Origin: Candidatus Sulfobium sp.
Lineage (GTDB): Bacteria > Nitrospirota > Thermodesulfovibrionia > Thermodesulfovibrionales > UBA6898
NCBI GenBank assembly: GCA_037380845.1
Contig: JARRRI010000063.1
Location: forward strand, 1-12,844
DNA: 12,844 nucleotides
Reading direction: 5' to 3'
Made by a program: the position numbers. Below, in pieces: positions 1 through 3,000 of this stretch (position 1 is the first letter of the stretch; every line of letters begins with the position of its first letter).

Positions 1-3000
1 GTTGCCTTTTTTATCATTGATGAAAAATGTTGAAGAGAACATGAGAACAGCGCCCCAAAAGGCACCGGAAGAATGGAACCAGACGAAAAGGTTGTGACAG
101 TAATCAGAAAAAGCATGGAAAAAGTCAAGGATGCCCATGGAAAAGAGGGCGTAAACAAGAAAAAGAATATTCTTTTTCCCGGAAACCAGATATTCCCAGG
201 ACAATATCAGGCCGATAATGATTGCGATCAAACCGCAAAAAACTTCAATGAGGGTGTGATTTGAAGAATTTACCCAGAACATATTCCCTAACCCTAAAAA
301 CTGCTCTATAATCGGCCTGCTCGCGGATACTAATGCCACGGATATGAAGACAAAAAAAGTAAAGAAAAGGAGTTTGTTTCTGGTCAAGAAAGTACTATCT
401 TTAGTCTCATCGACATTAAAAGTAACGTAATTGAGAAAAGAGCACTTCTCAAAGGGGGGGATGAGACCCCCGATCTTTTTCAAAAAATCAGGAGGTTTCA
501 CGTTCCCGATGCCTGGTCTTTTTCCCCTGCTGCAACCCCGGGAGTTGATTCAATTTCTTCAGGACCAGACGTTGATTTTTTGAAATTTCTAATTGCCTCT
601 CCGAAGCTCCTTCCTAATGCAGGCAATCTTGTGGCACCAAACAAGATCACGACGATTACCAGGAGAATTAGCAGTTCTTGAAGGCCTAATCCAAACATCT
701 CCTCCCCCCTTATTGAAAAGTCCGCATTAGCAAACACCTGGAAGCTCATTCCATGGGATTTGCCTCTTTTTTTAAAGCCCTTTTCAACTCTTAAGCACCT
801 AGATATATTTTACCACAAAGTGCAAAAATCAAGGACCGCCCGTACAGTCAGCCGCTTTTCGGGCTTTACGTTACGCCGCCGTGGTCATGATGGCCGTTTT
901 GTCCTACTCTTTCATGGCGTTCGTATAATTCTTGATCCTTGTCAGCCTGTCTTTCATTTCGTCAAGCGCCTGCAGGGACGCCCCGATTTCCCGGCGTCCC
1001 CTTTCGATGTCTGCTTTGCTTCTGTTTCTCTGCGCCATCCCTTTTTCCACTGCCGTTCCTATCCCATCGATGGTCGCCTCGATTCTCTGGAGCATCTCCC
1101 ACCTGAAATCCAGCTTGCTCTTCTGGATGCGCTCATCGAAGTCGTTCCCGGACCTTCCAAGTTGCATATCGACGGCATTAGTCAGTTGCTCACACATCTT
1201 CTTATGGATAATCCTGTCGCCTATGAATTTAGGCAGAGCGAGGGTCAGGGAGGAAGCGACTATCTCTATGCCGACAGGCTGCTCTTTGAATTTATAGTAA
1301 AACCGTGATCTTGCAGACCAGATGGCCTCGGTCTTGACGGCCTCGAAAGGGATTTCGAAAAGGTCAGATGAGAACTTGAGAAGCTCATCGACAGCACTGT
1401 CTATCTTGATCACGAACCTCTTACAGATCACCTGGAATGCCCTGGCAAGCTTGTCGTCTTCCATTGCCCGCCATATATTGAAAGCCTGTCTTACACGGGA
1501 TATGATCGATTCTTCGACCGTCTTTTTGAGTTCCCTGGAGGACAGTGTTTTAGCCCGGGAGAACAGTTCTTCAAGTTGGCTCTGCTCGTGAGAAAGCAGT
1601 TCTCTCCTGAACTTCGCCATGTCCTCATGAAGTACGCTCCTGATCAGCCTCTTTGTTTCGCCGTCCAGGAGGATATCGAAATCCCGCTTTTCGAGTAATA
1701 CGTCCCTTTTTTTCGCCTCAAAAGCCGCGATCTTCTGCTGAAGCTCTGCAAGAGGTGTAGTAAGCGATTTAAGCTCCAGTTCGAGTTCAAGTCCTGCCTG
1801 AGAGATCAGCCTCATAAGGTTGTCGGCCACCGAGGTGATAAGGACCTTCCCTTTTTCTTCCATGAGGAAAGCGTTCAGCTTCCGGGAAAACTCCGGAAGC
1901 ATGCTTTTTCGGATCACGTCCGCGGCGTTGTTGAGTTCGCCGTCCAGGGCCTGCTTAGCCGAAAGCGGAAATATCCGCACATCGGAGCCGGTAGCGTCCC
2001 GGAGCACATCCTTTTGAAAATCGATGGATTCCACCAGGTCCCTTTCGTCCACCTGGTCGGCCTTGTTGAGCAGGAAAAAAATCCTGTTTGAATATTCTCT
2101 TACGTCCCTGAGAAAGTCGAGCTCCGCCTTGCTTACGGGCTGGTCGACAGACAGAAGAAAGAGAACCGCGTCAGACTTCGGCAGGTATCGATACGCCACA
2201 TCCGTGTTGTGCTGGTAGATGGAGCCGACCCCGGGGGTGTCGATCAGCCGCACGCCGTCCTTCAGGTAGTGCGAGGGGTAAGTTACTACAACCTCGTTTA
2301 CGTCCTTGGCGTTCCTGGGGTTTCCTTTCTCAGTTACGTATTCGCGCAGGCTTTCCGGATTGATCTCGGCGACTCTGCCGTCGTTGAAACTGACCTTGAT
2401 CCTCAGCGCATCGCCGTAAGTAATAATGGTCACGATGGATGTAAGCGGCACAACGGCAACAGGAAGAATGTCCGCGCCGAGCAGGGCATTAATAAGGCTC
2501 GTTTTCCCTCTCTTGAATTGGCCCGCAACGACTAGATTAAAGGCGTTGGTTTCAATCTTCTCTCTCAGTTCTTCGCACGGACAGCCCCTGATGCATTCCA
2601 TGGCGAGCATGTCATCGATGCACCGTAACAGGTCTCCCTTCAGACTTGAATAAGCCGACATTGCGGAAGATGCGACCGCAAACGTTTCTTCCGGCATTAC
2701 CGCACCTCCTCATACGGATAATAAAAAACTCCTGCCAAAATGTCCTTCAGCAGGAGTCATCAGTCCGTGCGGACGTTTGTGGCGAACTCCATCGCCATAA
2801 CCTTAAAATTAATGTATCAGGAATTGAGAATAATGTCAAAATCATTCCGTTTCCCGTCAAGAAATTAAAGGCCGTCTCCCGGCGGAATTCTCCCTGTATT
2901 CAGTATTATCAACATTAATGAAAACGTTCAATGGCGGGTGTGATCCATGCAGAATTGCTCCTGGGAACTTTGGGACATATAATTGAAATAAGAGGTAGCC

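Follow-up and report, generated by a model that had tools for sequence, protein, structure and literature searches.

The window, by which we mean the whole 12,844-nt stretch of Candidatus Sulfobium sp. DNA that was analysed, carries on its minus strand a fluoride riboswitch aptamer (crcB motif, RF01734; 2744..2805) and, as the first gene 3' of it on the same strand, the gene for a 597-residue dynamin-like protein (DLP; 904..2697). Both features had been reported in the genome-wide survey's note, and both were reproduced: the covariance-model match covers the full model (1-64) with a score of 54.1 bits against a gathering score of 34 (E 6.5e-13) and is the sole match in an Rfam scan of the window, and the DLP matches Dynamin_N over residues 55-212 (E 1.6e-29; 103.5 bits against a cut-off of 27). 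The end of the aptamer (2744) is separated from the ATG of the DLP gene (2697) by 46 nt, within which there is no ORF.

On the other side of the aptamer lies a promoter-like site (2811..2839 (-)), consisting of TTGACA, a 17-nt spacer and TACATT, with a TG before the -10 element. With 10 of 12 matches, it is the top-scoring site within 400-3200 (as judged on consensus only), and it would place the predicted transcription start at approximately the first base of the aptamer. The expression platform is an intrinsic terminator (2717..2758 (-)), found by both a terminator scan and the MFE fold, in which a hairpin of 14 pairs (2758-2727) is followed by a U-rich tail (2726-2717). The 3' pseudoknot strand of the aptamer (ACUCC) is part of the 5' arm of this hairpin, and, therefore, the aptamer and terminator folds are mutually exclusive; the MFE fold of the leader has an energy of -48.4 kcal/mol and a z-score of -3.78. 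Thus, a platform that competes for the aptamer 3' strand is present, a point that the note had raised as a caveat. Translation is served by a ribosome-binding site (GAGGAGG; 2705..2711 (-), read from the sequence) located 7 nt 5' of the ATG. Additionally, a second, weak promoter-like match (9/12) falls within the terminator, at 2746-2718 (-); if real, it would bypass the switch. At the far end of the gene, a weak terminator-like hairpin 3' of the stop codon (834..849 (-); six pairs and a T-rich tail, consensus only) is likely to mark the end of the riboswitch-controlled transcript.

Next after the DLP gene is a TatA-like ORF (498-749 (-)), which matches TatA_B_E (5.7e-17) and TIGR01411 (62.9 bits against a cut-off of 53.9). 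Its start is probably the ATG at 698, rather than 749, since it is the former that has a strong ribosome-binding site in front of it, and the family matches start only at residues 18-21. The presence of tatA after the DLP gene, as given in the note, thus stands, but its candidacy as a conserved operon partner was rejected: terminator-like hairpins lie between the DLP stop codon and tatA, and the ORF clusters with none in the 40 other mapped loci. The divergent H+-ATPase gene was likewise rejected as a co-regulated gene, being in the opposite orientation with no second aptamer on the plus strand.

There are exactly two RF01734 matches in this genome (G000), namely, the one described above and another at C4:12619-12681 (-), which precedes genes for CrcB (125 residues) and a tandem-DUF190 protein (235 residues); this bears out the note's statement that a crcB-DUF190 operon with its own switch resides elsewhere in the genome. 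By this measure, G000 has two fluoride-controlled units, the DLP gene and crcB-DUF190. The sequencing runs that contain the stretch are of DNA only and labelled marsh or salt-marsh metagenome, with no RNA run among them.

Architecture of the dynamin-like protein

The GTPase domain of the DLP (approximately residues 53-255) is followed by a long helical neck and trunk helices, as delineated by the Dynamin_N match, by matches to the bacterial dynamin-like proteins BDLP and IniA, and by the predicted fold; G000 has no other full Dynamin_N match. Across 39 orthologues, the P-loop (GQFKRGKT), DTPG and K-A-D motifs are invariant, the residue preceding KAD being Asn, or Ser in one clade. In the AF2 model (pLDDT 77.5; pTM 0.70), which is a prediction and not a solved structure, the helical neck and trunk bundle is folded back on the GTPase domain, and the top Foldseek matches are PDB entries 2j69, 6j72 and 2j68, with TM values of 0.58-0.65 over the full length (~600-700 columns). 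Together, sequence and model suggest that the DLP is a single-headed membrane GTPase of the BDLP/IniA type, with a catalytic site that looks active. A hydrophobic segment (residues ~473-493) located between the two longest helices is conserved in the same 39 orthologues, where P489 is invariant, and F491, T485 and E478 are each conserved in at least 90%. This segment is a putative membrane paddle at the tip of the trunk; it falls in a stretch (residues 458-491) where confidence in the model is low.

The best match in terms of both sequence and fold is BDLP from Nostoc punctiforme (PDB 2j68/2j69; sequence E 1.9e-24, fold E 2.7e-22, TM 0.61-0.65 over ~690-705 columns). The two proteins share the same layout of GTPase domain, neck, trunk and tip, although they are only 17-18% identical and BDLP is ~100 residues longer; we know of no inducer of, or ion-stress link for, the Nostoc protein. 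Mycobacterial IniA (PDB 6j72/6j73; sequence E 4.1e-20) is, like the DLP, single-headed and ~600 residues long; the sequence match spans residues 46-411 and the TM values are 0.58-0.63, but the structure-based identity is only ~18%. IniA is encoded together with IniB and IniC, whereas the DLP gene of the window stands alone, and, to our knowledge, IniA is not associated with a riboswitch. In the available text of PMC6715688, IniA is described as stress-induced and as acting on membranes; its inducers are anti-tuberculosis drugs. For Bacillus subtilis DynA, the available parts of PMC8844932 and PMC12998192 describe membrane surveillance under stress, and we take this as the functional model for the proposal made below. 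However, DynA is a two-headed fusion and has no riboswitch, and the NCBIfam DynA model gives 83.8 bits on the DLP against a cut-off of 1600. Indeed, no NCBIfam family scored over its cut-off for the DLP, nor for the proteins that recur as its neighbours.

Conservation of the riboswitch and DLP pairing

Of 317 genomes from the order Thermodesulfovibrionales, 92 have a DLP orthologue, and these represent 57 of its 122 genera; the query used retrieved none from the other 225, which identifies the DLP gene as accessory. Pairing with the riboswitch was counted over the 83 gene copies that keep their N-terminus, from 81 genomes of the order. An aptamer lies 19-346 nt upstream on the same strand in 61 of these (one being a 26.6-bit partial match), 0.35-5 kb upstream on the same strand in 15, and ~7.9 kb upstream in two, whereas the remaining five have none on the contig; a rescan at E<=1 found no aptamer at three of these five (G001, G015 and G079), nor at G518. 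Viewed from the other direction, 61 of the 144 aptamers found in the 81 genomes directly precede a DLP gene. The pairing is present in 13 families of the order, and one genome, G123, holds two DLP copies, each with its own aptamer. Conservation across the order, as claimed in the note, is, therefore, stronger than was stated there. Related genomes in these counts are not independent, and most of the records are metagenome bins.

Similar observations were made further afield. Elsewhere in the phylum, 19 genomes bear a DLP: in 12 an adjacent aptamer exceeds the cut-off, in three the adjacent aptamer falls slightly short of it (31-33.9 bits), two have an aptamer 0.9-1.7 kb upstream and two have none. 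In a species-representative collection, which overlaps the order and phylum sets, the best 80 of 559 relatives were examined, and 66 have an adjacent aptamer (at a median distance of 62.5 nt), in 12 the aptamer lies 0.9-2.9 kb upstream, and two are without, both of these loci having <400 nt of upstream sequence. Other Nitrospirota classes and genomes labelled Desulfobacterales show the pairing again, as do, with DLPs of 29-33% identity, genomes labelled Nitrospirales and Spirochaetales. For example, G509 encodes a DLP that is 29% identical, the matched region of which begins 133 nt after an aptamer, and two Spirochaetales-labelled loci encode DLPs that are 37-38% identical to that of G509, each behind an aptamer (53.8-60.6 bits); at L169, where the DLP shares 33% identity with that of the window, 61 nt separate the aptamer from the ATG of the DLP gene. 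Two taxon labels, 'Spirochaetota' for L075 and 'Deferribacteres' for L115, were discarded as independent evidence of a wide spread: their rows are identical or nearly so to Nitrospirota rows and the contigs are short (2.3 and 3.7 kb), and, therefore, both are probably mis-binned.

When 27 aptamers from in front of DLP genes were aligned, 99.7% of the cells in P1, P3 and the pseudoknot were paired, compared with 38-57% in slid controls. There are compensatory changes in all four P3 pairs, and none of 500 shuffles reaches the observed values; the pseudoknot pairs hardly vary and, therefore, speak neither for nor against the structure. Moreover, the core positions are invariant, and no systematic deviation from the Rfam consensus was seen in these 27 copies. 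Such features would not be expected of a copy that had decayed, or had been re-specialised, and had ceased to sense fluoride. It is true that some DLP-adjacent aptamers contain long insertions and have scores near or below the cut-off (e.g. 33.6 bits at L165, 34.5 at G310 and 26.6 at G116), but that of the window matches the full consensus, and, given the invariant core and covarying helices, we regard loss of fluoride sensing as barely credible.

As regards the platforms, a terminator overlapping the aptamer 3' strand accompanies 28 of 31 DLP-adjacent aptamers, and two further ones have a translational variant. In family f6, a different ON design is seen, in which the ribosome-binding site and start codon are sequestered through pairing with the 3' strands of the aptamer and of P3 (z -4.4 and -5.7), and in the Spirochaetales-labelled genomes the platform is probably a relay of hairpins. 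Thus, the same ligand would act on one gene through several platforms: termination in most lineages, direct masking of the translation initiation region in f6 and, probably, a hairpin relay in the Spirochaetales-labelled genomes.

With regard to genomic context, the DLP gene is adjoined by genes for CrcB, DUF190, a Na+/H+ exchanger, Usp, HAD-like, enolase or Mrp/Nuo-like proteins in 30 of 41 mapped loci, which extends the note's observation that it sits beside crcB-DUF190 in relatives. In the window and 10 other mapped loci, the DLP gene is alone with its own switch and no transporter is nearby. Where the aptamer is distant, the intervening stretch in the mapped loci holds a Na+/H+ antiporter gene, accompanied at some of them by Usp or DUF190. 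The note had counted nine of 30 loci as lacking a detectable aptamer; these are probably operon cases, as exactly nine of a separately chosen best 30 have an aptamer 1.66-2.9 kb upstream on the gene's own strand, and in the five of these nine that were mapped a Na+/H+ antiporter gene (with Usp or DUF190 in some) intervenes.

This arrangement could be read as indicating a helper in export or sequestration, whereby the DLP would shed vesicles, or remodel the membrane around CrcB, the Na+/H+ antiporter or an MFS transporter, and thus help to remove fluoride or fluoride minerals instead of repairing damage. The 15 copies that lie 0.35-5 kb behind their aptamer would fit such a role, as would the MFS transporter gene present in 12 of the 41 mapped loci and the release of extracellular vesicles mediated by mycobacterial DLPs (as described in the available part of PMC10240201). 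It is, nevertheless, an improbable account of a gene that, in the window and 10 other loci, has a switch to itself and no transporter in the vicinity.

A further possibility is that the DLP is an anti-phage or general membrane-defence dynamin, similar to Eleos (LeoA/LeoBC) or DynA, that travels on a mobile fluoride-resistance island, such that its link to the riboswitch is incidental. The Eleos proteins are homologous large GTPases, and PADLOC gave E-values against the DLP of 1.6e-22 for LeoBC and 2.1e-19 for LeoA, which reflect a general, family-level similarity. Additionally, a gene for a STAND-like P-loop NTPase is located 3' of the DLP gene in 11 of 41 loci, and integrase-domain genes occur in four of 41. 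Horizontal spread is also suggested by a quick protein tree of the DLPs, which departs from the family labels; part of the conservation may, therefore, stem from an island moving as one piece. On the other hand, Eleos is defined by paired DLP genes, whereas both the window and G000 have one DLP only, a single gene under a fluoride switch, and a plasmid search found no close relative, its five records being at most 35.5% identical over no more than half of the protein. Moreover, a dedicated aptamer and platform stand directly 5' of the gene in the 61 copies noted above, and the pairing persists through three platform types and down to 29-33% identity, for which incidental linkage does not account. 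We, therefore, consider a defence function with a chance link to the riboswitch to be very unlikely.

Proposed function and relation to the fluoride regulon

The reading that we prefer is that the DLP gene is itself the target of the switch. Transcription from the sigma-70-type promoter would give an mRNA whose first 62 nt constitute the fluoride aptamer. With no fluoride present, the aptamer 3' strand would pair downstream into the 14-pair terminator, and transcription would stop before the gene is reached. Fluoride is known to be bound by this riboswitch class as a Mg-fluoride cluster; once it is bound, the pseudoknot would keep hold of the strand, no terminator would form and the DLP would be made, such that the device would operate as an ON switch. 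The protein would then bind to the cytoplasmic membrane, and repair or remodel it when fluoride stress threatens the integrity of the envelope, in parallel with stress-induced IniA and the membrane-surveillance protein DynA. The leader closely resembles the transcriptional fluoride riboswitch of the Bacillus cereus crcB operon, the archetype of RF01734, which, in the available text of PMC8752731, has the same aptamer family, the same ON logic and a terminator whose 5' arm overlaps the 3' pseudoknot strand. In contrast, the gene controlled here encodes a dynamin-like GTPase and not a fluoride channel, and crcB-DUF190 has a separate switch on another contig.

Taken as a whole, the locus is likely to be a single-gene, fluoride-inducible unit making a DLP that repairs or remodels the membrane under fluoride stress. 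As to its parts, induction of the DLP gene by fluoride in vivo is highly probable, whereas membrane repair or remodelling as the role of the DLP under these conditions, which we draw from analogy, has somewhat less than an even chance of being correct. Altered membrane structure and integrity are among the responses to fluoride described in the available part of PMC11139923. Nothing in the sequence itself explains a need for membrane remodelling under fluoride; the link is made by analogy.

A different explanation for fluoride control is compensation, in which the GTPase is poisoned by metal-fluoride mimics of phosphate and the cell responds by making more of it. Such a logic has been proposed for riboswitch-controlled enolase, pyrophosphatase and HAD phosphatases, and dynamin-family G domains are known to be trapped by GDP-aluminium fluoride. 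In the available part of PMC11139923, overexpression is described as countering the inhibition of phosphoryl-transfer enzymes and enolase, and enolase and HAD-like genes do lie beside the DLP gene, in five and eight of the 41 mapped loci, respectively. Compensation, however, presupposes a housekeeping role, whereas this is the only DLP in G000, it is placed behind a strong terminator, and it was not found in the majority of the genomes of the order with the query used. Furthermore, both of the copies in G123 are aptamer-controlled, and, therefore, there is no constitutive copy to back up. Compensation is thus an unlikely basis for the fluoride control of this gene.

If the DLP is indeed made in response to fluoride, the fluoride regulon gains a new kind of member. 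The known ones handle export, pH, phosphate enzymes and glycolysis: crcB, CLC-F, a Na+/H+ antiporter, enolase, pyrophosphatase, HAD, mutS-like and Usp genes are likewise preceded by the aptamer, and none of the classes listed in the available parts of PMC11139923 and PMC2864571 is a dynamin-like or membrane-remodelling GTPase. Many of these known genes adjoin the DLP gene in relatives. The note had presented a dynamin in the fluoride regulon as new, and our full-text literature search, whose scope did not extend to Baker et al. 2012 or McIlwain et al. 2021 with their supplements, found no published link between dynamin-like proteins and fluoride riboswitches. Likewise, the eight text files supplementary to Weinberg 2010 contain neither 'dynamin' nor 'GTP', and no crcB-motif gene table surfaced when they were searched for these terms.

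The function of bacterial DLPs is poorly understood, and few have a defined physiological signal; here, the riboswitch would label when this subfamily is wanted, namely, on accumulation of fluoride. Fluoride would, therefore, offer research on these proteins a cheap, titratable inducer together with a concrete phenotype. In turn, a membrane-remodelling GTPase under fluoride control suggests that the integrity of the envelope is among the targets of fluoride toxicity, which bears on the use of fluoride as an antimicrobial and on the engineering of microbes that defluorinate organofluorine compounds. A broader proposition, which we regard as doubtful, is that there is an unrecognised membrane-damage arm of fluoride poisoning, to which this DLP subfamily would be dedicated as a fluoride-induced repair or remodelling device and, together with its riboswitch, would have spread through anaerobes from three or more phyla. 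In a less likely extension of the mechanism, Mg- or Al-fluoride together with GDP would lock the G-domain dimer, such that fluoride would be both the inducer of the DLP and the direct trigger of its assembly on the membrane.

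The leader and the protein it precedes

The sole Rfam match across all 12,844 bases of the window is a fluoride (crcB-motif) aptamer, RF01734, on the minus strand at 2744-2805, which covers the full model and scores 54.1 bits against a gathering score of 34 (E 6.5e-13). The region's best match to a promoter consensus, TTGACA-17 nt-TACATT with a TG extension, lies at 2839-2811(-), and RNA made from it would begin at about the first base of the aptamer. Running on from the 3' strand of the aptamer is a 14-pair hairpin with a U-rich tail next to it (2758-2727(-)): because its 5' arm holds the pseudoknot-forming ACUCC, the aptamer fold and the terminator hairpin exclude each other. 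The leader as a whole folds at -48.4 kcal/mol (z -3.78) and, as predicted from sequence, is a transcriptional fluoride riboswitch of textbook ON design; for the crcB motif at large, PMC2864571 has predicted terminators overlapping the conserved motif, such that ligand is expected to increase expression. A ribosome-binding site, GAGGAGG (2711-2705(-)), precedes the ATG at 2697, giving the 46 nt between aptamer and start codon reported in the genome-wide survey's note.

The gene behind this leader (904-2697(-), 597 aa) had been assigned to the dynamin-family GTPases, rightly so: residues 55-212 match Pfam Dynamin_N with E 1.6e-29; no NCBIfam model matches at its cut-off. By sequence, the solved structures nearest to it are those of Nostoc BDLP (E 1.9e-24), IniA (4.1e-20) and the Campylobacter dynamin-like protein (DLP) pair. 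Across 39 orthologues (alignment A1) the P-loop, the switch-I threonine, DTPG and KAD are invariant, and a hydrophobic stretch at ~473-493 is also kept. An AlphaFold2 model built on this alignment (pLDDT 77.5, pTM 0.70) presents a GTPase domain, then very long helices; confidence is low at the tip (458-491), and the membrane paddle is a low-confidence prediction. Foldseek places the model nearest to BDLP (TM 0.61-0.65 over ~690-705 columns) and IniA (TM 0.58-0.63), then the Campylobacter DLPs, SynDLP and mitofusins. Together, the Dynamin_N match, the nearest solved proteins and the Foldseek comparison identify the protein, as modelled, as a single-headed bacterial DLP. It is the only gene product of the host genome, G000, to match the whole Dynamin_N model, three other matches being to the P-loop alone.

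G000, which is 100% complete, contains just two fluoride aptamers. The second, on contig C4 (C4:12619-12681(-)), precedes genes for CrcB (125 aa) and a tandem-DUF190 protein (235 aa), in agreement with the note's placement of a separately switched crcB-DUF190 operon elsewhere; the DLP gene and this operon are, therefore, the only two units of the genome behind a fluoride switch.

Conservation and gene order in the Thermodesulfovibrionales

DLP orthologues (E<=1e-20) occur in 92 of 317 genomes of the order, representing 57/122 genera and 12 of the 13 families scored; the gene is accessory, the window query having found none in 225 of the 317. RF01734 was searched in 80 of the 91 other DLP-bearing genomes, the remaining 11 being omitted because they gave only C-terminal, contig-edge or weak matches, and at least one aptamer was found in 79. 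Coordinates were compared for 83 DLP copies that keep the N-terminus, from 81 genomes including G000: an aptamer lies directly upstream on the same strand (19-346 nt) in 61 (one a partial match of 26.6 bits), at 0.35-5 kb in 15 and at ~7.9 kb in two, with none on the contig in five, although these relatives are not independent and most of the genomes are bins. The adjacent aptamers account for 61 of the 144 (42%) in these genomes. The pairing is, thus, kept in the order, as had been claimed, and on sequence grounds the DLP appears to be a real, well-conserved addition to the fluoride-riboswitch regulon. Some copies are interrupted by in-frame stops or frameshifts (G326:C20:551735-553469, G335:C12:9193-10861 and G260:C26:63104-64874), perhaps through gene decay or misassembly.

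The genes of 41 loci were mapped with a crude ORF caller of our own, with BLAST clustering and with Pfam searches of cluster representatives. The maps explain the non-adjacent cases through intervening transporter genes: at these mapped loci a Na+/H+ exchanger gene precedes the DLP gene, in some with Usp or tandem DUF190 as well. In genome G086, where the aptamer is 7.9 kb away, the DLP gene is the last of a riboswitch-led Mrp/Nuo-like cluster; the same Mrp-like gene stands directly before it in G001 and G079, whose contigs end before any aptamer could show. The nine of 30 loci for which the note had found no aptamer are probably operon cases: among our own best 30 loci, exactly nine have their aptamer further off, 1.66-2.9 kb upstream and on the strand of the DLP gene. 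Arrangements seen often are [switch]-crcB-DUF190-[switch]-DLP, [switch]-Na+/H+ exchanger-Usp-[switch]-DLP and [switch]-DLP-[switch]-enolase. The reported company of classical fluoride genes in relatives also held, with at least one such gene type at 30/41 mapped loci; the DLP gene stands alone at the other 11, the window among them.

Switch designs and distant homologues

Among 31 DLP-adjacent aptamers, 28 have the terminator design, in which a hairpin of -17 to -26 kcal/mol leads from the aptamer 3' strand to a U-run; one more, in G191, has a longer hairpin that the terminator rule overlooked. The two aptamers of family f6 (loci L048, 4605-4675(-), and L049, 5545-5620(-)) lack a terminator: the aptamer 3' strand and the P3 3' strand pair instead with the ribosome-binding site and start codon (z -4.4 and -5.7), a predicted translational ON switch. 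The DLP gene would, thus, be under differing expression platforms in different lineages. At L169, from a Spirochaetales-labelled bin, a two-hairpin relay (2205-2300(+)) apparently masks the ribosome-binding site, although that fold scores weakly (z -1.1). Family f10 and some others (L058, L060, L059, L061, L063 and L040) repeat a CUCCUAC-like motif after the terminator; the second copy can pair with the DLP ribosome-binding site UAGGAGG, and the repeat may add a translational layer of control.

Over 27 DLP-adjacent aptamers, 99.7% of cells pair and all four P3 pairs show compensatory changes, values matched by 0 of 500 shuffles, which argues that the aptamers before DLP genes are under selection. 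Some carry 30-100-nt insertions and score 33.6-50 bits, near or under the gathering score (L165 1775-1933(+); G281:C32:31435-31534; aptamers 96-100 nt long in G301, G310, G260, G315 and G054), so that a survey at that score will overlook part of them.

Sampling 401 genomes across the phylum Nitrospirota turned up the DLP gene in 45, of which 19 fall outside the order. Of these 19, 12 have an adjacent aptamer over the cut-off, three an adjacent one at 31-33.9 bits (one with an insertion of ~100 nt) and two an aptamer 0.9-1.7 kb upstream; none was found in the other two, one of which has just 392 nt of sequence upstream. Scanning the species-representative collection with a pattern gave 559 relatives. 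The best 80 were searched with our own aptamer model R1, which derives from alignment A2 and so is not independent of it: an aptamer lies 18-262 nt upstream in 66, at 0.9-2.9 kb in 12 and nowhere in two, both with <400 nt of upstream sequence; this set overlaps the preceding genome sets, since both draw on the same species representatives. Rfam at its gathering score agrees with R1 at 18 of the 20 loci given to it.

Loci labelled Desulfobacterales, Desulfobacteraceae, Desulfonema or 'delta proteobacterium', whose contigs reach 1.6 Mb, group in a quick tree into two well-supported clades (SH-aLRT 100) within the Nitrospirota rows; the tree suggests that an island with the DLP gene moves between lineages. 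An aptamer lies upstream in all six, adjacent in five and at 1.4 kb in L143; it is the sole fluoride aptamer found in four of five such genomes, two of the four being those of L075 and L115, which are probably mis-binned. The labels of these two (Spirochaetota, on a 2.3-kb contig, and Deferribacteres, 3.7 kb) are doubtful, as their DLPs are identical or nearly so to those of Nitrospirota bins.

More distant still is the DLP of the Nitrospirales-labelled bin G509, 29% identical to that of the window (Dynamin_N 4.8e-27): a pair of fluoride aptamers precedes it, with a 130-aa ORF that lacks any Pfam match between them, and genes for a STAND-like NTPase, a Na+/H+ exchanger and Usp come after it. 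Two Spirochaetales-labelled loci encode DLPs 37-38% identical to it, each behind an aptamer of 53.8-60.6 bits. The L169 DLP (33% identity to the window's, E 2e-73) has an aptamer 61 nt before its ATG and is followed by a second, before a MutS-domain-V protein, a class tied to the crcB riboswitch as early as 2010 (PMC2864571). That the DLP is an incidental defence gene linked to the switch by chance is unlikely: the association is kept over deep protein divergence, with different neighbours and switch designs, and is poorly explained by hitch-hiking.

Possible role and flanking genes

Drug treatment induces IniA, which carries out membrane fission (PMC6715688), DynA collects where pore-formers or phages have damaged membranes (PMC12998192, PMC8844932) and mycobacterial DLPs drive vesicle release (PMC10240201); a recent review counts changes in membrane structure and integrity among the responses to fluoride, its available text naming neither GTPase nor dynamin (PMC11139923). 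Because the best-studied relatives work on membranes under stress, the review lists membrane changes and the gene is accessory with no constitutive paralogue in G000, we tentatively suggest, by analogy, that the DLP may act in membrane repair or remodelling under fluoride stress. Less probably, it would have a helper role in export or vesicle shedding, or be made in compensation for fluoride inhibition. Against compensation stand the accessory distribution, the absence of a constitutive paralogue from G000 and the strong terminator upstream, a pattern that would fit a protein devoted to stress better than the back-up of a housekeeping enzyme that fluoride inhibits.

The note's statement that DLPs were unreported among fluoride-riboswitch genes stands within the literature covered: full-text searches, which excluded the original 2012 gene lists and a 2021 review, found no link between the two, the hits examined being eukaryotic or otherwise unrelated, or irrelevant by title or abstract, and PMC7266159, in its available text, describes a fluoride 'super-regulon' without the word dynamin. 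What is new is the link itself, riboswitch and fold being of known kinds; bacterial dynamins thereby gain a new regulatory context.

Several neighbours merit description. A module recurs 3' of the DLP gene, often with a stop codon that overlaps the next start (L057 2310-3502(-), L056, L041, L066, L067 and L071; L164 5296-6210(+)): a STAND-like P-loop NTPase (~265 aa, AAA_16/NB-ARC-like; 11/41 loci), a zinc-ribbon and HEAT protein (128 aa; 8/41), a HAD-like protein (160 aa; 8/41) and an MFS transporter (12/41). The NTPase also accompanies the G509 DLP (NTPase identity 25%, E 4e-17), and a search of G000 for it found none; the NTPase may be a DLP partner.

Divergent from the riboswitch promoter in the window is a gene for a plasma-membrane proton-efflux P-type ATPase (3095-5617(+); TIGR01647, 1036.9 bits vs 615.5), with no aptamer preceding it. 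Its protein cluster recurs in G281, where the gene belongs to a riboswitch-led crcB-DUF190-HIT operon that directly precedes the DLP switch, and in G092, divergent from the DLP gene; the ATPase may tie the locus to pH homeostasis under fluoride.

On the other side, a tatA-like ORF (498-749(-)) does lie 3' of the DLP gene, as the note had it, but terminator-like hairpins (849-834 and 735-720, (-)) intervene between the DLP stop and the tatA start, and TatA is beside the DLP gene at 0 of 40 other mapped loci. Its start is probably the ATG at 698 (66 aa) rather than 749, given the ribosome-binding site GGGGGGAGGAG before that ATG and family matches that begin at residue 18-21. Pfam assigns the remaining genes, with no visible link to the finding, as a MASE3-like sensor fragment (1-501(-)), a HEAT-repeat protein (7297-8016(-)), a TPR protein (9463-10635(+)), an fn3/Big_7 surface protein (11163-12842(+)) and a LysM/YkuD L,D-transpeptidase (5930-6865(+)); YkuD-type genes also occur near the DLP gene at two further loci, L058 and L061.
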